The position numbers and the translations under genes were made by a program. The notes below the pieces were generated by a model that was given only the letters and a program-made list of their open reading frames with translations, was not told the origin of the DNA and made no database searches. Shown piece by piece: positions 16,862 through 25,539 of a DNA stretch of 64,000 nucleotides. Origin of the DNA: a virus. Taxonomy: Duplodnaviria; Caudoviricetes. The stretch lies in IMG/VR virus record IMGVR_UViG_3300028864_000017. One strand, written 5' to 3'. Each line of letters begins with the position of its first letter. Positions within the stretch are counted from its first letter, which is position 1.

Positions 16862-17053
16862 ATGTTAGAATTATTAAAATATGCTACTTCAGATTTTTGG
16901 ACATTTATATTTTGTTTTTTCATAATTTCTGTAATTGGAAGTTTTATAGTGGAAATATTCAACGCAATTTTTAAAAAGTCAGAGATTAGAATAGATTTAA
17001 CAGATAAAAAAGATAAACCAGATAAAACAGATAAAACAGATAATAAAAAATAG
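16862..17053 (+). CDS. small membrane protein
   Basis: One TM helix followed by DK(P/T) repeats. Confidence 0.65.
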   Translation: MLELLKYATSDFWTFIFCFFIISVIGSFIVEIFNAIFKKSEIRIDLTDKKDKPDKTDKTDNKK

Positions 17054-17054
17054 T

Positions 17055-17579
17055 ATGAAAATAAGAACTGGATTTGTAAGCAATTCATCATCAAGTAGTT
17101 TTGTAGTTATCTTCCCATTTGAACCGAAATGTATGGAAGATGTAAAAAAAATTCTTTTTAGGGAAGAACAGTTATATTATGGAGATGAAAATTATTCTGT
17201 AAATAAAGTTTCAGAAACTATCTGGAATGATATATGTGATCAAACTAAGAATGATATTGATAAGGCAAGTGAAATAATATCGAATGGATATTTGGAAATG
17301 GAAAATGATGCTCCTGATTTTGATGATTTTAAATATATTGAAGATAGAAATGAAAGATGGGAAGCATTTGCAGAAGCTAAAGATAAATATTCAAAAAAAT
17401 TACTTAAAGAATTTTTCAATGTAAGAAAATTAAAACTTCAAGTTATTGATGGTAAAGAGGTAAATGATGGAGTGATGTATTGTTTTAGTTTTTCAGATAA
17501 TGATGGAGAATATTATAGTGCACTTGAACATGATGGAATATTCAACAAATTAAAAAATATAACTGTCAATTGTCATTGA
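17055..17579 (+). CDS. FVSNSSSSSF-family protein 7
   Basis: Starts MKIRTGFVSNSSSSSF. Confidence 0.85.
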   Translation: MKIRTGFVSNSSSSSFVVIFPFEPKCMEDVKKILFREEQLYYGDENYSVNKVSETIWNDICDQTKNDIDKASEIISNGYLEMENDAPDFDDFKYIEDRNERWEAFAEAKDKYSKKLLKEFFNVRKLKLQVIDGKEVNDGVMYCFSFSDNDGEYYSALEHDGIFNKLKNITVNCH

Positions 17580-17581
17580 TT

Positions 17582-17617
17582 AAATAAAAAAGCTTCTAAA
17601 AAGAAGCTTTTTTTATT
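17582..17617. terminator. bidirectional terminator
   Basis: aaataaaaaagcttct-aaaa-agaagcttttttattt between convergent genes. Confidence 0.75.
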
Positions 17618-17855
17618 TCCAATTTCTTTTTGCTCTAATAGCAAAATTAATTTCTTGTTCTTGATCAATAATACTCTTTGGAACATCTTTGCCTTCATCT
17701 TGATATTTCTTACTTCTTTTTTTAAGTGATGATAATTCACTCTCCAACTCATCAATAGTTTTACCTGCATGTTCACCAGTATGTTTAACTTTAACTTTCT
17801 CATCCCATTTTTCATTCATAGATTTATAATCTATAAAATTTTTCATCATTTTCAT
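17613..17855 (-). CDS. small hypothetical (putative virion) protein
   Basis: MKNFIDYKSMNE start resembles capsid-targeting motif. Confidence 0.7.
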   Translation of the reverse strand: MKMMKNFIDYKSMNEKWDEKVKVKHTGEHAGKTIDELESELSSLKKRSKKYQDEGKDVPKSIIDQEQEINFAIRAKRNWK

Positions 17856-18033
17856 GTTTATAATATCATTTTCAGTATATATTTATATTGTAATGTTATC
17901 AAACTATAAAATATAAATGAAAATATAAGTAAAATATTAAAAAACAATAAAATATTTGGTAAACAATTCAAACCGAAGTACATTTGTATTGAAATTAAAA
18001 CAACAATCATTTAAATCATCTAAATTAAAAATT

Positions 18034-18198
18034 ATGACTACTAATTCAAGTAAATCAGAAAAAGTTTTCTTTTTGACTAAATCAGAATACAATGGAATTA
18101 AAGAAGTTGTAAATCTAAAAAATTTCACCAGAGTTCCAGGTGCAAATAAAGAAGTTGGTGGCTTCTCATTTTATGCAAAGAAAGAAAATGTTCTATAA
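18034..18198 (+). CDS. small hypothetical protein, copy 1
   Basis: MTTNSSKSEKVFFLT...GGFSFYAKKENVL, 54 aa. Confidence 0.75.
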   Translation: MTTNSSKSEKVFFLTKSEYNGIKEVVNLKNFTRVPGANKEVGGFSFYAKKENVL

Positions 18199-18291
18199 AA
18201 AATCATAAAATATTTTGACAATTTAAAAAAATATAGTAATTTTGTATTGAAAATAAAACAATAATCATTTAAATCATTTAAATTAAACATT

Positions 18292-18462
18292 ATGACAACT
18301 AATTCAAGTAAATCAACAAAAGTTTTCTTTTTGACTCAAAATGAGTATAATGTTATTAAAGAGGTAGTAAACCTTAAAAATTTCACCAGAGTTCCAGGAA
18401 TAAATAAAGAAGTTGGTGGCTTCTCATTTTATGCAAAGAAAGAAAAAGAACTTGCAATGTAA
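18292..18462 (+). CDS. small hypothetical protein, copy 2 (not in ORF track)
   Basis: MTTNSSKSTKVFFLT...GGFSFYAKKEKELAM, 56 aa, paralog of 18034-18198. Confidence 0.75.
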   Translation: MTTNSSKSTKVFFLTQNEYNVIKEVVNLKNFTRVPGINKEVGGFSFYAKKEKELAM

Positions 18463-18482
18463 TATAAAAAATAATATAGTAT

Positions 18483-18526
18483 AAAAAATAACCTTTTTTT
18501 CTTAATTGAAAAGAAAGGTTATTTTT
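18483..18526 (+). terminator. intrinsic terminator
   Basis: aaaaataacctttt...aaaggttattttt hairpin. Confidence 0.65.
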
Positions 18527-18598
18527 ATAAAAATAAGATTATAAACATTTTGTAAATTGATAATTTTTTATTACTTTTATACTCCAAATTAAAAATAA

Positions 18599-18835
18599 TT
18601 GAATATGAAATATAAAGTAGATTATTACACAAGCACTGGTACAATGTCAGACAATGATTTCATAGGTATATTTAATACTCCTAAAGAAGCCAGTGATGCA
18701 AAAACAGAGTACATAAAAGTGTATATGGGAGAATCAAAAGAAGAATATTGTGAACTAAACGAATGTGATGAAGAAGAATATTATGATGAATTAAAAAATT
18801 ATGAAAATTCAATAGTCATTGAACCAATATTATAA
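18599..18835 (+). CDS. small acidic hypothetical protein
   Basis: 78-aa ORF. Confidence 0.7.
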   Translation: MNMKYKVDYYTSTGTMSDNDFIGIFNTPKEASDAKTEYIKVYMGESKEEYCELNECDEEEYYDELKNYENSIVIEPIL

Positions 18836-18868
18836 TTTTTATTTATTTAAATAATAAGTTTAGAAACA

Positions 18869-18999
18869 TTTGGTAGATTAAAAACTTTTTATTACTTTTG
18901 TACTATCATATTAAAAGTAGAAAAAAATGATAGTTTTTCATTAATATAAAAAAAAGATTGAAAAATGTTTGGTAGAATGAAAACTTTTTATTACTTTTG
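18869..18999 (+). promoter_or_regulatory. two tandem near-identical Bacteroidota promoters upstream of tRNA region
   Basis: TTTG-N20-TACTTTTG at 18869-18900 and 18968-18999 within a direct repeat of about 50 bp. Confidence 0.8.
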
Positions 19000-19113
19000 T
19001 ACTATCATATTAAAAGAAAATAAAAAATAGAAAAAAATGACTTTTTTTCTATTATATATAACAAAGAATAAACTTTATAGAAAATAAAAACTAATATAAA
19101 AAAGCAAAACAAG

Positions 19114-19203
19114 ATGTATCGTAATCTATATATAAATGAGGAAATGTGTAACAACGAAATTATCAATAATATTGATGATACATCCCAATTGACTGAGAAA
19201 TAA
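19114..19203 (+). CDS. putative attenuator leader peptide 1
   Basis: 29 aa MYRNLYINEEMCNNEIINNIDDTSQLTEK followed by terminator. Confidence 0.55.
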   Translation: MYRNLYINEEMCNNEIINNIDDTSQLTEK

Positions 19204-19228
19204 AATTAAGGCTTATGCCTATAATTAT

Positions 19229-19262
19229 AAATCCAGTCAATTAAAAAATGACTGGATTTTTT
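19229..19262 (+). terminator. attenuator-type terminator 1
   Basis: aaatccagtca/tgactggattt stem with T tract; 5' arm complementary to 19187-19195. Confidence 0.75.
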
Positions 19263-19265
19263 GTT

Positions 19266-19499
19266 ATGAAAAAAGTTAAAGAAAATAAAATTGATGAATC
19301 AGCAGAAGTAGTAAATAAAATTCAAAAAAATTATGATGAACTGAAAAGGAAATCTGATAGAACTGAAAAATTTATAATGTTTGCTGATAAAATCAAAATT
19401 GATTATAGTGAAGTTCCTAAAACAGAAAAAGGAATGAATTCAAAAGCAAAAGAGATTGCTAAGAAACTTTATAAGAAAATAGATAAAGAAAAAGATTAA
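19266..19499 (+). CDS. small basic hypothetical protein
   Basis: ATG just after terminator; Lys/Glu-rich. Confidence 0.65.
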   Translation: MKKVKENKIDESAEVVNKIQKNYDELKRKSDRTEKFIMFADKIKIDYSEVPKTEKGMNSKAKEIAKKLYKKIDKEKD

Positions 19500-19506
19500 A
19501 ATATAT

Positions 19507-19578
19507 CGCGCGGTAGGGAAGTGATACCCCGCAAGGCTCATAACCTTGAGAACGCTGGTTTGAGTCCAGCCTGCGCAA
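19507..19578 (+). tRNA. tRNA-Met(CAT), initiator-like
   Basis: Cloverleaf; C1:A72 mismatch; caagg-ctCATaa-ccttg. Confidence 0.85.
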
Positions 19579-19583
19579 CAATT

Positions 19584-19664
19584 AAAAAACTATATTGAAC
19601 AGCACCTCACTGGTAATGGGGACAATGCGAGTACACTAGCAGCTAAACTCAAAATAGTTTTTTT
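19584..19664 (+). ncRNA. candidate structured RNA of unknown type
   Basis: GC-richer insert closed by aaaaaactat/atagtttttt stem, with internal hairpins. Confidence 0.35.
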
Positions 19665-19691
19665 AAAAATAATAAATTAAAAGTAAATATC

Positions 19692-19826
19692 ATGAATAAC
19701 ATTAATAACATATACAGCATTTATCGCAATTGTAATATTAATTACAATATGGAAGAGATATGTATTAATATGATTAATAATGATTATATTAATGATGATG
19801 AAAATAATGTAGGAAGAACTGGATAA
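19692..19826 (+). CDS. putative attenuator leader peptide 2
   Basis: 44 aa MNNINNIYSIYRNCNINYNMEEICINMINNDYINDDENNVGRTG, 14 Asn. Confidence 0.55.
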   Translation: MNNINNIYSIYRNCNINYNMEEICINMINNDYINDDENNVGRTG

Positions 19827-19852
19827 GTTAAAAAATTATTATGTGAATAATA

Positions 19853-19890
19853 AAAAAACTCAGTTCTTAAAAATAAGAACTGAGTTTTTT
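19853..19890 (+). terminator. attenuator-type terminator 2
   Basis: aaaaactcagttctta/taagaactgagttttt stem; 5' arm complementary to 19814-19821. Confidence 0.8.
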
Positions 19891-19933
19891 ATTTTTAAAT
19901 GCTCTTTGAAATACTAGATAATGAATAATAAAT

Positions 19934-20016
19934 GGGAGTAATGCTCAAATTGGTCAGGCGCAAAACTGTAAATTTTGTAACCTTTTAGGTCGTCAGTTCG
20001 AATCTGGCTGCTCCCA
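19934..20016 (+). tRNA. tRNA-Tyr(GTA)
   Basis: caaaa-ctGTAaa-ttttg; variable arm; TTCGAAT. Confidence 0.9.
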
Positions 20017-20026
20017 CAAAAAACAC

Positions 20027-20098
20027 GATGCGTTCGTATATCGGAAAGTACTCTAGGTTTTCAACCTAGCAAGATGAGTTCAACTCTCATACGCATTA
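20027..20098 (+). tRNA. tRNA-Glu(TTC)
   Basis: ctagg-ttTTCaa-cctag. Confidence 0.85.
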
Positions 20099-20106
20099 CA
20101 AAAAAT

Positions 20107-20179
20107 GGGATATAGGTCAAATGGTTAAGATGTCACCCCGTCACGGTGCACGGAGCGAGTTCGAATCTCGTATATCCCG
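20107..20179 (+). tRNA. tRNA-Asp(GTC)
   Basis: cacc-ccGTCac-ggtg; short variable loop. Confidence 0.85.
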
Positions 20180-20202
20180 CTTATTATCAAAAAATTAAAA
20201 AT

Positions 20203-20290
20203 GCATTGGTTGCTTTAGTCGGTCGAAAAGTCTGGTCTGTTAAACCAGTAAGAGTAATCTTCAACGTAGGTTCGAATCCTATCCAGTGCG
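20203..20290 (+). tRNA. atypical tRNA with GTT (Asn) anticodon and long variable arm
   Basis: GCATTGG/CCAGTGC acceptor, G73, ctggt-ctGTTaa-accag, V-arm aaga-gtaa-tctt. Confidence 0.75.
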
Positions 20291-20296
20291 CAAAAA

Positions 20297-20368
20297 GGGA
20301 GTGTAGCTCAAAGGTAGAGCGTTTCGCTGTTAACGAAAGTGTTGGGATGTCGCAATTCCCCACTCCCG
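20297..20368 (+). tRNA. tRNA-Asn(GTT)
   Basis: tttcg-ctGTTaa-cgaaa; short variable loop; non-consensus T-loop (gtcgcaa). Confidence 0.8.
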
Positions 20369-20448
20369 CGAATAAATGATTAACTTTAAACTTTAATCTT
20401 TTTTAATATTATATATTTTTATATATACAATAAAAATATAAATAAATT

Positions 20449-21273
20449 ATGGAAAGCATTAAAACTAAAATATTATCATTAAGAAAAGAAGGAAAAACAT
20501 ACAATGAAATATCAGAATTATTAAATTGTTCAAAAGGTACAATATCTTATCATTGTAAAAAATTATATAATAATATTGAATTAAATAAAAAAAACACAAA
20601 ATTATCAAATTTAAAAAAATTAAAAAATATACCAAATATAGATTTTGGTGATGAGATATCTGATGAGATTTTTAAAAAAGTTATTGAATATCGAATAAAT
20701 GGTAATACATATGAAGAAATAATAGAAAAAACTAAATTATCTTTAGATAAAATTAAAAAAATATGCAGATTAAATAATATCAATGATGGTAATTATAAAA
20801 AAAATAATTATTGTAAAATATATGAAAACGTTAATAATGATGACGTTATTGAAATGCAAAAATACTATGATGAATGTAAAAGTACAAGAAAAGTATCTAA
20901 AAAATTCAATATTGGTAGATATCAAATATCTAAAATTTTAATTATAAATAAAAAAGAAAAATTATCTAAAGAAGAGTATAAAATAAAAAGAAAAAATGAT
21001 ATTGTAAATAATGTTATTAGTTGGAGAAAAGATAAAAAAAGGAAACTTGTTGAATATAAAGGAGGAAAATGCGAAAGGTGTGGATATGATAAATGTATAG
21101 ATGTATTTGATTTTCATCATAAAGATCCTACTCAAAAAGATTTTGGAATAAGTGCAAAATCTTATTCATATGAAAGATTAAAAAAAGAAGTTGATAAATG
21201 TATGTTAGTGTGTAAAAATTGTCACACAGAAATACATTATGAAATAAAAAATAAAAATGGTTCTGGCGCATAA
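20449..21273 (+). CDS. HNH homing endonuclease with N-terminal HTH repeats
   Basis: GGKCERCGY...FDFHHKDP...CMLVCKNCHTEIH; two HTH-like segments; free-standing in tRNA cluster. Confidence 0.9.
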   Translation: MESIKTKILSLRKEGKTYNEISELLNCSKGTISYHCKKLYNNIELNKKNTKLSNLKKLKNIPNIDFGDEISDEIFKKVIEYRINGNTYEEIIEKTKLSLDKIKKICRLNNINDGNYKKNNYCKIYENVNNDDVIEMQKYYDECKSTRKVSKKFNIGRYQISKILIINKKEKLSKEEYKIKRKNDIVNNVISWRKDKKRKLVEYKGGKCERCGYDKCIDVFDFHHKDPTQKDFGISAKSYSYERLKKEVDKCMLVCKNCHTEIHYEIKNKNGSGA

Positions 21274-21344
21274 CGGCTGGTGTACCTGACTGTCACTCAG
21301 GCTTCTCGTAAGGGATATAGGGAATTCGACTTTCCTCAGAACCG
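21259..21344 (+). tRNA. atypical tRNA with GTC (Asp) anticodon and long variable arm
   Basis: GGTTCTG/CAGAACC acceptor, G73, cctga-ctGTCac-tcagg, V-arm tctc-gtaa-ggga. Confidence 0.75.
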
Positions 21345-21354
21345 CAAAGATAAT

Positions 21355-21436
21355 GGAAATATCGCATAGTGGCAATTGCAACTGACTGTAAATCAGTTCT
21401 TTCACAAGTTCGTGGGTTCGAGTCCCTCTATTTCCA
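21355..21436 (+). tRNA. tRNA-Tyr(GTA)
   Basis: actga-ctGTAaa-tcagt. Confidence 0.9.
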
Positions 21437-21443
21437 CAAAAAT

Positions 21444-21517
21444 GACCGAGTGCCCGAATGGAATAAAGGGATAGTCTGCAAAACTATATTGTGTGGGTTC
21501 GAGTCCCACCTTGGCCT
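21444..21517 (+). tRNA. tRNA-Cys(GCA)
   Basis: atagt-ctGCAaa-actat; U73. Confidence 0.85.
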
Positions 21518-21530
21518 CAATGAACATTAT

Positions 21531-21600
21531 GCCGAAGCTTAGTGGAAAAGAGATTTCTCTCATAAGGAAATCCAAATGAGTTCGAACCTCATATTCGGTA
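21531..21600 (+). pseudogene. degenerate tRNA(CAT)
   Basis: Intact anticodon (ctCATaa) and T arms; 2-3 nt missing between acceptor and D arm. Confidence 0.5.
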
Positions 21601-21667
21601 CAGAGTTTATTATTATGACTAGTATCATACTAATAGTATGTTATGATTAATAAAAATAAACTAAAAT

Positions 21668-21741
21668 AGTCTTGTATATCAGTCGGTTAGATTGTCATCC
21701 TGATAAGATGGAGGTCGTGAGTTCAAGTCTCACCAGGACTA
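21668..21741 (+). tRNA. tRNA-Ile(GAT)
   Basis: catc-ctGATaa-gatg; canonical cloverleaf. Confidence 0.9.
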
Positions 21742-21752
21742 CTAAATAACAT

Positions 21753-21829
21753 TGGTGAATATACCCTCTGCCTGATAAGTAGTAGAAAGGTTAATTGGTC
21801 ACATGTGGGTTCAATTCCCACTTCACCAA
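21753..21829 (+). ncRNA. tRNA-like RNA (GAT) without D-arm; D-loop-like motif 3' of anticodon arm
   Basis: TGGTGAA/TTCACCA acceptor, ctgc-ctGATaa-gtag, aagg-ttaattggt, gtggg-ttcaatt-cccac. Confidence 0.7.
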
Positions 21830-21842
21830 CAATAAAAAACAC

Positions 21843-21921
21843 ACTGTCGTATCCCCACTGGCTTATATCCAGTCATTAACAAGGTAATTGGTGTATGAGG
21901 GTTCAAGTCCCTTCGGCAGTA
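21843..21921 (+). ncRNA. tRNA-like RNA (TAT) without D-arm; D-loop-like motif 3' of anticodon arm
   Basis: ACTGTCG/CGGCAGT acceptor, actgg-ctTATat-ccagt, aagg-taattggt, gaggg-ttcaagt-ccctt. Confidence 0.7.
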
Positions 21922-21934
21922 CAATAAACAACAA

Positions 21935-22059
21935 GGTAGTGTAACTCAAAAGCACAAAGGGGATAATTATGAAACTAGAATAAATAATTTGAAACGAGCG
22001 AAGGATAGAGTGCTGGGCCGATGTCTCAGAAGTTGATGGTTCGAGTCCATCTGCTACCA
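21935..22059 (+). tRNA. tRNA(GAT)-like gene with about 50-nt insertion in D-loop
   Basis: GGTAGTG/TGCTACC acceptor, actc/gagt D-stem, ctggg-ccGATgt-ctcag, TTCGAGT. Confidence 0.6.
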
Positions 22060-22068
22060 CAAAAATAT

Positions 22069-22151
22069 GTGATTAATATGACACAGGTAGTCATGTCAGT
22101 ATGTAAAACTGATCTCTTCGGAGGTTGTGGGTTCGAGCCCAACTAGTACCA
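22069..22151 (+). pseudogene. degenerate tRNA-Tyr(GTA)-like sequence
   Basis: tcagt-atGTAaa-actga, ttcg variable arm and T arm present; acceptor stem poorly paired. Confidence 0.4.
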
Positions 22152-22219
22152 CAAAAAATATTTAATACAATTTATATTATTTATATAATTATCACTATTT
22201 ATATATAAATAAAAAAAAT

Positions 22220-22759
22220 ATGAATAAATTAGTCGAGAAATTTAAATCATCACAAGAAAAATTTGCAATATTTTTATCAGATTCATTATCTAGTATGACA
22301 ATGTTTTGGATAATTACAATATTAGTTATATTTCCATTATTTTTTAGTCAGCCATCAGGTTTAGTTGCATGGATGCAATATTTAGTATCAGTTTTCTTTC
22401 AAGGAGTAGCATTACCAGTTTTAGGATATATTGCTAAGATAAGTGGAAGTAGAACTGATGCAATAATATCAAAGATTGAAGAATTATCCGAAAAAATAGA
22501 AGCTATGACAGAGCATATAAATGTTGATGTTGATGACATAAAAACTCATGTAGTTGATATTGATATTGAATTAAAAGATGTAGATACTGATGTTAGTGAC
22601 ATAAAAAGTCATGTTGATGATATAGATATTGAGTTAAAGTATGCTGACACAGACGTTAATGAAATACAAAATCATGTTGATAATATACAAGAAGATTTAA
22701 AAAATGTAGACTTTGACATAAATAACATTCAAGATAATATAGAAAAAGAAAAAAAATAA
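22220..22759 (+). CDS. membrane protein with C-terminal coiled-coil repeats
   Basis: Two TM helices followed by D/I/V-rich heptad repeats. Confidence 0.8.
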   Translation: MNKLVEKFKSSQEKFAIFLSDSLSSMTMFWIITILVIFPLFFSQPSGLVAWMQYLVSVFFQGVALPVLGYIAKISGSRTDAIISKIEELSEKIEAMTEHINVDVDDIKTHVVDIDIELKDVDTDVSDIKSHVDDIDIELKYADTDVNEIQNHVDNIQEDLKNVDFDINNIQDNIEKEKK

Positions 22760-22830
22760 TTTACATTAAAATTATCATTGTATAAAAATTTTAATATAAT
22801 TTGTACTATTTATACATAAAGACAAATGAT

Positions 22831-23211
22831 ATGGATAATTTAGTAGAAAATATTAAGTCGGAGCAAGAAAATATATCATTAAGAACTGATGATATTATTA
22901 CAAAGATAGAAGAGTTATCTAAAAAAATAGACACAATAACTGCACAAATAACAAATGAAGTTAGTGAAATAAAAAATATTATTTATGACATACAACAAAA
23001 TATAAAAAATGTTGATACTGATGTTGATAATATAGTAGGTAATGTAGGTGAAATAAAAGGAGAATTAAAGGATGTTGATTCTGATATTAGTAAAATCAAA
23101 GATGATATTAAAAATGATAATTTGGAAGATATTAAAGACAGTGAAGAATTAAAAAACGCAATAAAAAAGAAATCTGGTGGAATTACATATAATGTAGTTA
23201 TTCAACAATAA
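22831..23211 (+). CDS. coiled-coil protein paralogous to the C-terminus of 22220-22759
   Basis: RTDDIITKIEELSKKI versus RTDAIISKIEELSEKI. Confidence 0.7.
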   Translation: MDNLVENIKSEQENISLRTDDIITKIEELSKKIDTITAQITNEVSEIKNIIYDIQQNIKNVDTDVDNIVGNVGEIKGELKDVDSDISKIKDDIKNDNLEDIKDSEELKNAIKKKSGGITYNVVIQQ

Positions 23212-23274
23212 AAAATTTTTAATATTGAATATACAAAAAAATTGTGTATCTTTGTTTTTATTTAAAAAATCAAC

Positions 23275-23760
23275 ATGAAATACGGAATTTACACATTAGT
23301 AATTGAGAATTATATCACTAAAAATTTACCTCTACTAAGTACATTTTCATTAAAAATGGAATTCGGATGGGGTAATGGTTATATATTAATACCTAATAAT
23401 CATCCATCATATGGAGTTTCATATGATGATATGAATACAATAAGTGTACATGGAGGATTAACATATGGTCAATTTTTTGATTCTAAATCATTTTTAGAAT
23501 GGATTGATAATTTAGAAATTGATGGTGATGTAACAATAGATAATTATAAAAAATTAGATAATTATTGGATGATAGGATTTGATACTAATCATTATGGAGA
23601 TAGTATTGAAAAATGTTCTAAAGAATATGTAATACATCAATCTGAATATTTAATGGAACAATGTTTAAATAATAAAATAGAAGGAGTTATGAAATACAAA
23701 TTAGCATACTCAAGAAAAGAAAAATTAAAAAACATTAATCAAGTCATTAAAAATAAATGA
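23275..23760 (+). CDS. conserved phage protein of unknown function
   Basis: WGNGY..P..HP, VHGGLTY, W.IGFDTNH motifs; ends SRKEKLKNI; TATCTTTG upstream. Confidence 0.8.
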   Translation: MKYGIYTLVIENYITKNLPLLSTFSLKMEFGWGNGYILIPNNHPSYGVSYDDMNTISVHGGLTYGQFFDSKSFLEWIDNLEIDGDVTIDNYKKLDNYWMIGFDTNHYGDSIEKCSKEYVIHQSEYLMEQCLNNKIEGVMKYKLAYSRKEKLKNINQVIKNK

Positions 23761-23774
23761 GTAAATACTTACAT

Positions 23775-23846
23775 GTGCTTATAGTGTAATGGATAACACG
23801 TATCACTACGGATGATGAGTTGAAGGTTCGAGTCCTTCTAGGCATA
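23775..23846 (+). tRNA. tRNA-Arg(ACG)
   Basis: atca-ctACGga-tgat; canonical cloverleaf. Confidence 0.9.
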
Positions 23847-23921
23847 CAAAAAAATCAATTTGGACTAATTTAATTTTATATATAAGTTAATTAATAAACT
23901 TAAAATTAAAAAATTAAATAA

Positions 23922-24218
23922 ATGAATAAAATTGAAGAAATTTTCAAATCTTGGAGAATATCATTCAACCCAAATGATGAGCAATCAGATCTTGCAAGTA
24001 AAAGAATTGAAATATGTGATGGGTGTGAGCATAAAGAGATGTTAAATATAGGAGAGATTGATATATTTGCAAGATGTAATTTATGTGGCTGTGCGTTAAA
24101 AGCAAAAATATTCACACCTAAAACATATCAAGATATCGGAGGAACATGTCCTATTCAAAAATGGACTGAAGTTGAAAAAGAGCATTTAGATTCAATTGAA
24201 AATGGAAAGAAAATTTAA
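23922..24218 (+). CDS. small Cys-rich phage protein
   Basis: RIEICDGC...CNLCGC.LKAK...CPIQKW. Confidence 0.8.
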   Translation: MNKIEEIFKSWRISFNPNDEQSDLASKRIEICDGCEHKEMLNIGEIDIFARCNLCGCALKAKIFTPKTYQDIGGTCPIQKWTEVEKEHLDSIENGKKI

Positions 24219-24477
24219 AATAGGTGACATTGTTATTTGTTCTGAAATTTGCAATGACATTAAAGAATATCCTTGGTATCATAAAATTCCTATGTCAATT
24301 ATTGGATTTTCAGAATATGGTAATTGTTACTATACTGATTATTGGGACTCTGATAACATAGGAATGATGACAAATAAGACAATAAATGGAGTAACTTATG
24401 AAAGTATTTCAGAAGAATGTTTAGAGTTTTCTATTAAGCACACAAGAAAAGAGAAATTAAAAAAGCTTCATATTTAA
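24196..24477 (+). CDS. KOW-like small protein with RKEKL tag
   Basis: KFKIGDIV start; ends TRKEKLKKLHI. Confidence 0.7.
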   Translation: MKMERKFKIGDIVICSEICNDIKEYPWYHKIPMSIIGFSEYGNCYYTDYWDSDNIGMMTNKTINGVTYESISEECLEFSIKHTRKEKLKKLHI

Positions 24478-24492
24478 ATATGAAGCTTTTTT
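24460..24492. terminator. bidirectional terminator
   Basis: aaaaagcttcatatt-ta-aatatgaagcttttt between convergent genes. Confidence 0.7.
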
Positions 24493-24498
24493 AATTTT

Positions 24499-25539
24499 TT
24501 AATTTTTACCATGAATAGGACAGTTATCATCAATTAAACATTTTTTTGAAGGATAAATTTCAATATTATTAATTTTTGGACATGTACATCTTGGAGTTTG
24601 CCAAAATTTATGAAATAATATATCTTCATCTTCTCCGTAAAGAGTTTGCATATTAAATTCAATATTAGTTAGTTTTTTATAATATTTTTTTATACTACCT
24701 TCACAGTTATAAATATCATCATAAATCTTCAATTTATTTAACAAACAATCTTTCAATTTTGATAAATTTTCATTAATTTGAATTCTATTCTCATCAACTC
24801 TACTTCTAAACTCTTTATATTTAACCAAATATTTATCCTCTTTTTCATATTTGTCAATCAAATCATTTAGTGTAGAACTTTTCAATTCTTTATATTCTTC
24901 AGGATTAATATCTTCGTCTTCAATACATTTTTCTAGCTCTTCAAATCTTTCTTTTTTATCAAGAGGACCACCATGAAATGTTATTTCACTAAATATTGCG
25001 TTATACAAATCAAATAATGTAAATGTTTTTTCTCCTAACTCAAATTTTGAATCTTCTTCATTTTTACCCTCTATCAATTTATTATAATCATATACAGTGA
25101 AATTTTTATTGAGTGAAATGTTTAATTTTTTTAAATTATTAAGAGATACAAAGTCTATTGAATAAAAATCAGAATTGTTATTTGATACGCCGTGAATTGT
25201 AGATGTTACATTTAATTCATTATCATACTTATTACAGCTCCAATTAACTTCTAGATAATCCATATCAAGTTTGTCAGTTGGATTATTTTCAATTTCTTGT
25301 AAAAATGGATCAATATAATATCCATCTAATGATGAATAAAAAATATCATTAAAATCATTAACATTATGTGATATAATATCAAACAATCTTTTAAATATTA
25401 AATTCTCACCTAATTCAACAGTATCTGACAAAAAAAGTAATATATCGTTTGGGTCAATAACATCAGCATTATCTATTGAATCTAGGTATAAAATTGATTC
25501 TTCGCTATAATAGATTTTATTGTTTGTTATGGTTATCAT
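24499..25539 (-). CDS. hypothetical phage protein
   Basis: 346 aa; C-terminal PRCTCP..N...CPIHG motif. Confidence 0.8.
   Translation of the reverse strand: MITITNNKIYYSEESILYLDSIDNADVIDPNDILLFLSDTVELGENLIFKRLFDIISHNVNDFNDIFYSSLDGYYIDPFLQEIENNPTDKLDMDYLEVNWSCNKYDNELNVTSTIHGVSNNNSDFYSIDFVSLNNLKKLNISLNKNFTVYDYNKLIEGKNEEDSKFELGEKTFTLFDLYNAIFSEITFHGGPLDKKERFEELEKCIEDEDINPEEYKELKSSTLNDLIDKYEKEDKYLVKYKEFRSRVDENRIQINENLSKLKDCLLNKLKIYDDIYNCEGSIKKYYKKLTNIEFNMQTLYGEDEDILFHKFWQTPRCTCPKINNIEIYPSKKCLIDDNCPIHGKN

Follow-up and report, generated by a model that had tools for sequence, protein, structure and literature searches.

Tandem multivalent leader-peptide attenuators probably gate the tRNA genes of a giant phage

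The window analyzed here is a stretch of 64,000 nucleotides (nt) that forms part of a 143,429-base IMG/VR virus record (IMGVR_UViG_3300028864_000017), and the element under study is a pair of short open reading frames (ORFs), each followed by an intrinsic terminator, at the head of the record's tRNA genes. CheckV places the completeness of the record at about 20%, so the record is a fragment of a giant phage. The phage is AT-rich (24% GC, with a range of 22-30%), near-identical DNA is present in peat metagenomes, and its DNA matches come from peat and permafrost metagenomes; a blastn search against 50,697 phage records returned tRNA-sized matches only and no relative. All 14 tRNA or tRNA-like genes of the 143-kb record lie on the + strand at 19.5-23.9 kb of the window, with no tRNA outside. 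Table 1 presents the features of this locus. We find it probable, at roughly 0.8, that the two units are ribosome-mediated, multivalent leader-peptide transcription attenuators that act in series and gate the phage tRNAs.

Table 1 Features of the leader and tRNA locus (window coordinates)
Feature	Position	Strand	Description
Promoter P1 (predicted)	18869-18900	+	TTTG-N20-TAnnTTTG, motif scan; first copy of duplicated cassette (18836-18927)
Promoter P2 (predicted)	18968-18999	+	Second cassette copy (18935-19026); motif scan and repeat family D1
Leader ORF 1	19114-19203	+	29 amino acids; sensor 19117-19179, tail 19180-19200, stop 19201-19203
Antiterminator 1, 5' strand	19187-19195	+	In last leader 1 codons; exact 9-nt complement of 19234-19242
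Small GC hairpin, AGGC-loop-GCCU	19209-19220	+	Found by folding; inside antiterminator 1
Intrinsic terminator T1 (predicted)	stem 19229-19259, U-run (U6) to 19262	+	Stem of 11 base pairs (bp), 9-nt loop
Small protein gene (orf77)	19266-19499	+	77 amino acids from this ATG; starts 4 nt past T1 U-run
tRNA-CAU	19507-19579	+	ARAGORN; Rfam 55 bits with alignment
Leader ORF 2	19692-19826	+	44 amino acids, 14 Asn; 38-codon sensor 19695-19808, tail 19809-19823
Antiterminator 2, 5' strand	19814-19821	+	Exact 8-nt complement of 19861-19868; encloses hairpin 19836-19853
Intrinsic terminator T2 (predicted)	stem 19853-19890, U-run to 19896	+	17-bp stem including A/U pairs, 4-nt loop
Gated tRNA array	19934-22059	+	ARAGORN, Rfam with alignments
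HTH-HNH ORF	20449-21273	+	N-terminal HTH_28/HTH_38 (Pfam), C-terminal Cys/His motif of HNH type; splits array
tRNA-Arg (ACG)	23775-23847	+	ARAGORN and Rfam; last tRNA of same-strand block; fits leader CGT/CGC codons
Bidirectional terminator, very strong	24452-24499		20-bp stem; closes + strand tRNA block, - strand genes beyond

Each unit combines a short ORF with a usable start, codons matched to the phage's tRNAs, an intrinsic terminator, and an antiterminator near the stop codon that excludes the terminator. An earlier description made from the letters alone (the sequence-only reading) had placed both ORFs, both terminators and, in each unit, an exact complementarity between the last leader codons and the 5' arm of the terminator; all of these coordinates are exact. 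The peptide of leader 1 is MYRNLYINEEMCNNEIINNIDD followed by the tail TSQLTEK, and leader 2 ends in the tail VGRTG. The codons ahead of the tail are referred to as the sensor.

The tRNA set was defined from the tRNA-finding tools alone, as the anticodons CAU, GUA, UUC, GUC, GUU, GCA, GAU, UAU and ACG, which together read codons for Met, Tyr, Glu, Asp, Asn, Cys, Ile and Arg (CGU/C/A). Such codons make up 42% of the codons in 166 long ORFs. In the sensor of leader 1, 20 of 21 codons are readable by the phage's tRNAs, the exception being CTA (Leu; binomial P 3.7e-7), and in the sensor of leader 2 the count is 37 of 38, the exception being AGC (Ser; binomial P 2.6e-13). A six-frame maximal-segment scan of the record places the two leaders at ranks 1 (score 36) and 2 (score 17), where the best background segment scores 16. 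The sequence-only reading had called the leaders rich in Asn, Ile and Asp. Such richness comes free in AT-rich DNA, however, and the defining signature is the eight-amino-acid set M, N, I, Y, R, C, E and D with K, F and L excluded. The residues with the most AT-rich codons, Lys, Leu and Phe, account for 9.8%, 7.9% and 5.2% of the proteome but are nearly absent from the sensors; AT-richness therefore cannot explain the sensor bias. The Arg codons of the sensors are CGT and CGC, though 778 of the record's 975 Arg codons (80%) are AGA, with CGT contributing 102 and CGC 8; the sole AGA in the leaders lies in the tail of leader 2. The residues listed earlier for the downstream tRNAs do match the leaders, but that list omitted the tRNA-Arg (ACG) that fits these CGT and CGC codons.

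A peptide pattern had also been proposed to be common to both leaders. Some similarity exists (P about 0.004 in composition-preserving shuffles), but the pattern is approximate and the similarity beyond composition is modest. As DNA, unit 1 and unit 2 show no significant similarity when the window is considered by itself (P = 0.07), and the case that the two units are paralogous is based instead on the family alignment described below together with the peptide order (P = 0.004).

Complementarity between a leader tail and a terminator arm sets the two units apart within the record. The longest perfect complement of each terminator 5' arm was sought within 62 nt upstream for the 43 terminator-like hairpins of the 143-kb record, and T1 (9 nt) and T2 (8 nt) rank 1 and 2. 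The remaining hairpins have an upstream complement of 7 nt or less, mostly A/T. Folding of the alternative structures, which the sequence-only reading had suggested as a check, recovers both conformers in both units. The nascent RNA of unit 1, taken to the terminator loop, folds in silico into a helix between the tail and the 5' arm (-19.2 kcal/mol, z = -6.4), and masking of the tail yields the terminator conformer at -20.5 kcal/mol. The corresponding values for unit 2 are -11.3 kcal/mol for the nascent antiterminator and -22.0 kcal/mol for the tail-masked terminator, such that the folding model tilts unit 2 of this phage towards termination. These computed folds make antiterminator and terminator both available and mutually exclusive in each unit. 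Each sensor contains an internal hairpin (19159-19179; 19763-19794), neither of which pairs with the tail strand, and such hairpins would arise from AAU/AUU codons anyway. The small GC hairpin inside antiterminator 1 recurs with other loops or stems in the unit-1 copies of six related lineages (L003, L005, L013, L015, L016, L024). An Rfam scan of positions 17000-25000 at E <= 1 gave no T-box, riboswitch or known leader family, and weak matches to small RNAs fell far under gathering scores.

We then turn to related phages, which were collected by an orf77 protein search, two structure-pattern scans of IMG/VR and one profile search. Chance matches in GC-rich contigs from the pattern scans were discarded, and the profile locus search with the small-protein alignment contributed at least one new phage. 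The orf77 proteins of the relatives are 43-96% identical to the window copy where aligned. Eight lineages (the L001 group, L003, L005, L006, L013, L015, L016 and L024/L057) keep the locus architecture, with the common order leader 1, T1, small protein, tRNA-CAU, leader 2, T2 and array, except that unit 1 was not detected in L006, nor unit 2 in L013 or L015. The arrays of these relatives hold CAU, Glu, Asp, Asn, Tyr, Cys, Ile and Arg tRNAs only. Their leader peptides diverge widely yet keep to the eight amino acids, and residues outside the set are gathered in the last 4-8 codons. A few Lys residues occur near the N-termini of some leaders, where a later ATG may be the true start. In leader 2 of L003 the lone Ser is replaced by Arg (CGC).

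Comparison of the tails indicates that they are conserved as RNA, not as peptide. The unit-1 tail TTGACTG is read as Leu-Thr in most leaders and as Ile-Asp-stop in L005 following a 1-nt insertion, and the unit-2 tail GGACTGG is read in two different frames among the leaders. Alignment A1 holds 13 units from 7 phages, and the fact that they align indicates that the unit-1 and unit-2 modules are homologous. Within the antiterminator helix, 95% of cells are paired and three pairs have changed on both sides (8 cells); none of 500 column shuffles reached the covariation score, and pairing breaks down once the partner is shifted by 1-3 columns, although the relatedness of the units inflates such shuffle statistics and makes these covariation figures supportive as opposed to formal probabilities. 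Three base pairs of antiterminator 2 differ on both sides from unit 1 with pairing kept. Pairing in the terminator helix reaches 98%, and five of its pairs carry changes on both sides. Antiterminator columns 18/73 switch from U-A to G-C in unit-2 copies whose terminator leaves that base unpaired, and the constraint on this pair therefore comes from the antiterminator alone. A joint change is seen in L057, with G to A in the tail, C to U in the 5' arm and G to A in the 3' arm.

The minimum free energy (MFE) structure of the nascent RNA is the antiterminator in 13 of 13 units (-10.6 to -19.2 kcal/mol), the tail-masked MFE structure is the terminator in 13 of 13 (-16.7 to -24.2 kcal/mol), and the stop codon lies 0-8 nt past the tail strand in every unit. 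The classical antiterminator geometry that had been proposed for the window thus extends to all 13 homologous units aligned, and covariation in related phages, another of the checks proposed with it, is found as compensatory changes in both helices.

Leaders matched to their tRNAs are also found at other arrays in the relatives, which extends the earlier claim that leader codons follow the downstream tRNAs. In G001, a 96% relative, four tRNA-Gln genes lie behind a 17-codon ORF with five consecutive Gln codons (L008:1068-1121), whose stop codon overlaps the strand competing with the terminator arm. The Gln arrays of G004 and G006 likewise lie behind QQQQ ORFs and terminators (L051:2947-2988; L052, minus strand). 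The array of G002, an 88% relative, contains Lys UUU, Phe, Trp, Ser GCU, His and Lys CUU, and its leader is a 35-codon ORF (L050:1122-1229) whose central part draws 17 of its 19 residues from S, K, H, F and W and which is followed by a terminator; the same promoter cassette, A/U hairpin and 5' untranslated region (UTR) as at leader 1 of the window precede it (L050:980-1121). That is to say, within one phage lineage these sequences have leader composition changing with array content, and because composition tracks content, base composition and A/U-run avoidance are excluded as explanations.

The same TTGACTGG / CCCAGTCAA / TTGACTGG switch was also observed in three other AT-rich phage contigs, on the minus strands at L012:8035-8100, L021:8104-8168 and L026:8907-8971. 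There it is preceded by a Bacteroidota-type promoter with a 14-15-codon ORF (MK.LHTYKI...) and followed by the gene of a small basic protein, with no tRNA within 4 kb, and it appears to be a related attenuator whose leader and cargo differ from those of the tRNA units.

A Shine-Dalgarno (SD)-like motif occurs in 6 of 131 long ORFs, equal to random positions, indicating a genome without SD use; the start contexts of these 131 ORFs are 55-65% A, and both leader starts are equally A-rich. The record contains 25 copies of the Bacteroidota promoter motif TTTG-N18-21-TAnnTTTG, an enrichment over the 6.9 +/- 2.6 obtained in shuffles. Since SD use is lacking and this motif is enriched, the host is likely of Bacteroidota type. 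A sigma-70 promoter scan was uninformative (81 sites versus 87.5 expected), and promoter calls were made with the Bacteroidota motif, not with sigma-70. Following P2, the 5' UTR contains an A/U hairpin (19027-19052), and a P2-type promoter and 5' UTR cassette also lies upstream of leader 1 in L003. The cassette itself, about 92 nt in length, is present in three copies (18515-18606, 18836-18927 and 18935-19026), of which copies two and three are 83% identical and stand in tandem upstream of leader 1. Between tRNA-CAU and leader 2, a search for canonical motifs found no promoter in the window, and the two switches are therefore probably in series. A promoter between T2 and the first tRNA, which would bypass the attenuators, was considered and rejected, as its sole -7-like box would overlap the tRNA 5' end. 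The same interval holds a conserved motif at 19901-19923 (GCTCTTTGAAATACT here, GTTCTTTGACATATTGG in relatives); motifs of the GTTCTTTGACATATTGG type lie downstream of T2 in L005, L006, L016, L024 and L057. The motif is no canonical promoter and may be a processing or binding site.

The sequence-only reading had both units gating the tRNA operon. This fits unit 2, behind which the main array lies, but unit 1 would gate the orf77 gene and tRNA-CAU directly and the main array only through unit 2. The orf77 family is Lys/Glu-rich with an invariant PKTEKG motif (alignment A2), has homologues at the same position in 8 related phages, and always lies directly after T1; in L003 the protein is extended at its N-terminus by 52 residues. 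Searches of Pfam and PHROGs matched orf77 to no family. The tRNA-CAU that follows is, in every relative as well, the only tRNA lying between the attenuators. A C1:A72 mismatch atop its acceptor stem, a hallmark of bacterial initiator tRNA, makes it initiator-like. The base of its anticodon stem has just two G-C pairs.

The main array begins with Tyr GUA, Glu UUC, Asp GUC, a long-arm GUU tRNA and Asn GUU, and continues after the HTH-HNH ORF with Tyr GUA, Cys GCA, CAU (21531), Ile GAU (21668), tRNA-like GAU and UAU genes and a weaker piece. The HTH-HNH ORF is, from its domains, probably a homing endonuclease, and relatives differ in the insert at its site. The long-arm GUU tRNA (20203-20291) is an 89-nt gene with a long variable arm (type II shape) and an Asn anticodon; it adjoins a normal 72-nt tRNA-Asn (20297-20368) and is also present in the 96% relative (L001:5739-5827). 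The two tRNA-like genes at 21753-21829 (GAU) and 21843-21921 (UAU) have no D-arm and carry a long extra segment after the anticodon arm, with weaker tRNA-like pieces downstream at 21999-22059 and about 22070-22152. These D-arm-less and tRNA-like pieces reach 31, 29 and 20 bits in Rfam. At the site in L003 that matches the D-arm-less UAU gene, ARAGORN finds a normal tRNA-Ile(UAU).

The arrangement of these elements suggests how the locus may operate. We infer that the leaders are translated, that transcription and translation are coupled in the uncultured host (probably a member of Bacteroidota), and that the response has the following direction. Host-type promoters (18869-18999) would start a transcript on which leader 1 is encoded first; T1 would gate the orf77 gene, tRNA-CAU and leader 2, and T2 would then gate the main tRNA array. 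In each unit, a ribosome would pass through the sensor codons and then enter a tail of 5-7 codons complementary to the terminator 5' arm. A fast ribosome would reach the stop codon and cover the tail, leaving the 5' arm to pair with the 3' arm and RNA polymerase to terminate in the U-run. If charged tRNA for any one of the eight amino acids ran short, the waiting ribosome would leave the tail free to capture the 5' arm first, allowing read-through into the tRNA genes. Since the gated products are the sensed tRNAs, the circuit would constitute negative feedback on decoding capacity, with the tRNA set supplied on demand.

Several observations weigh against this reading. Leader 1 alone is only marginally significant genome-wide, and each sensor contains one non-cognate codon, with a Leu or Phe kept at the CTA position across most leaders of unit 1. 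A ribosome stalled on any of the last 2-4 sensor codons would, given how near they are to the tail, itself cover the tail. In this window, antiterminator 2 (-11.3 kcal/mol) is far weaker than T2 (-22 to -25 kcal/mol). No anti-antiterminator (1:2-type pairing) was found in the units, so an untranslated leader should default to read-through. Finally, the covariation comes from few related units (13-15, from about 8 phages).

The alternatives differ in how much of the anatomy they accept. Were chance alone at work, a genome of 24% GC would supply abundant Asn, Ile and Tyr codons, self-complementary AAU/AUU, and hence Asn/Ile-rich ORFs with short complementarities near terminators, and the lack of significant DNA similarity between the two units within the window (P = 0.07) would fit such an origin. 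This explanation is effectively refuted by the exclusion of Lys, Phe and Leu, the residues with the most AT-rich codons, alongside the inclusion of rare Cys, Met and CGY Arg, by ranks 1 and 2 genome-wide in both independent scans, and by a design that is kept with compensatory changes in relatives. The short ORFs might instead encode small functional peptides, with the hairpins acting as ordinary leaky intergenic terminators. Small proteins are common in giant phages, and these ORFs are positionally conserved, cysteine-containing and acidic; their residue order, however, is poorly conserved while composition is kept, their C-terminal tails are kept as RNA and not as peptide, and their composition tracks the neighbouring tRNAs in three array types, all of which renders this account very improbable. 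Slightly less improbable, though still unlikely, is a real switch that is independent of the ribosome and flipped by a protein or by direct tRNA binding in the manner of a T-box, with the ORFs incidental. Both folds exist irrespective of translation and the leader ORFs have no upstream SD sequence, but SD is unused by any gene here, and Rfam finds no T-box or riboswitch. Such a switch would also leave unexplained a composition bias that is frame-specific and survives sequence drift in relatives, a leader composition that turns to Gln or to S/K/H/F/W with array content, and a stop codon that is always 0-8 nt from the tail strand.

A different question concerns what sets real attenuators in motion. 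Phage tRNAs have been proposed as a counter to tRNA-cleaving defences, and the trigger might be a host attack on tRNAs, by anticodon nucleases or tRNA depletion, with the array as a stand-by replacement set. The anatomy would indeed register slow decoding at the very codons that the gated tRNAs read, and separate arrays with separate matched sensors would allow only the attacked set to be replaced. The sequence does not tell attack from ordinary shortage, however, and feedback between supply and demand accounts for the anatomy just as well. Amino-acid starvation would act on the leaders in the same way. At 24% GC the phage makes heavy use of Ile, Asn, Asp, Glu and Tyr, so that its demand could by itself exceed what the host supplies. 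We regard a trigger by attack as a possibility of the minor kind, and hold to ribosome-mediated attenuation by decoding speed as the reading of the locus.

Multivalent leader-peptide attenuators are familiar from enterobacteria, where the ilvGMEDA leader responds to Ile, Leu and Val and the thr leader to Thr and Ile, alongside trpL, hisL, leuL and pheL. Like the ilv and thr leaders, each phage unit has a short leader ORF rich in regulatory codons with several amino acids per leader, an intrinsic terminator, and an antiterminator that shares the terminator 5' arm; the proposed masking of the antiterminator strand by a ribosome at the stop codon, and its release by a stalled ribosome, would also be shared. 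In contrast to the enterobacterial leaders, the phage units would gate tRNA genes and one small protein as opposed to biosynthetic enzymes and would sense eight amino acids over 21-38 codons; they show no 1:2 anti-antiterminator, lie in a context of Bacteroidota-type promoters without SD sequences, and match none of the Trp, His, Leu and Thr leader families of Rfam. Genes of the translation apparatus are also under attenuation in the pheST operon of Escherichia coli, which has a Phe-rich leader. The nearest published logic is that of leader peptides with His codons upstream of hisS paralogues in bacilli (PMC2965389). In the pheST and hisS leaders, as proposed for the phage units, a sensor of decoding speed controls a component of aminoacyl-tRNA supply for the sensed amino acid, but there the output is a synthetase protein for a single amino acid, while the phage output is the tRNAs themselves, which would act back directly on the sensor. 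T-box riboswitches resemble the phage units in that the state of a specific tRNA pool sets the choice of terminator or antiterminator, with genes of tRNA charging or amino-acid supply as the output. Unlike the phage units, T-boxes need no ORF and contact uncharged tRNA directly, by way of the specifier codon and T-box sequence, whereas the phage signal is frame-specific codon composition without an Rfam T-box match. The Salmonella mgtCBR leader contains tandem attenuators with two short ORFs (PMC3641672). It shares with the phage locus two leader-ORF-dependent switches in series on one transcript, but responds to other signals, and its regulated genes encode proteins.

To our knowledge, leader-peptide attenuation has so far been known for amino-acid operons and a few synthetase genes, and we know of no described attenuator that controls tRNA genes. 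A full-text literature search, with most subscription journals outside its scope, found no publication on leader-peptide attenuation of tRNA genes. The phage units would thus extend leader-peptide attenuation to RNA genes as output, to a phage setting and to Bacteroidota-type, SD-less expression, and one leader sensing eight amino acids at once would be a further extension.

Why large phages carry tRNA arrays is an old question, and the candidate answers are that the arrays compensate for codon usage, replace host tRNAs that have been degraded, or help the phage evade defences aimed at tRNAs. A sensor of decoding speed on the codons of the gated tRNAs implies that tRNAs are supplied on demand, as opposed to constitutively. 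More tentatively, the giant phages of this clade may split their tRNA genes into regulons (M/N/I/Y/R/C/E/D; Gln; K/F/W/S/H), each behind a codon-matched leader, which together would form a real-time, per-codon monitor of decoding and switch on the set limited by host defence or codon mismatch. Were this so, these would be the first tRNA genes under ribosome-mediated attenuation, and their leaders would provide a functional read-out of why phages carry tRNAs. The rule that links array content to leader composition is a strong computational predictor and can be surveyed across metagenomic phages.

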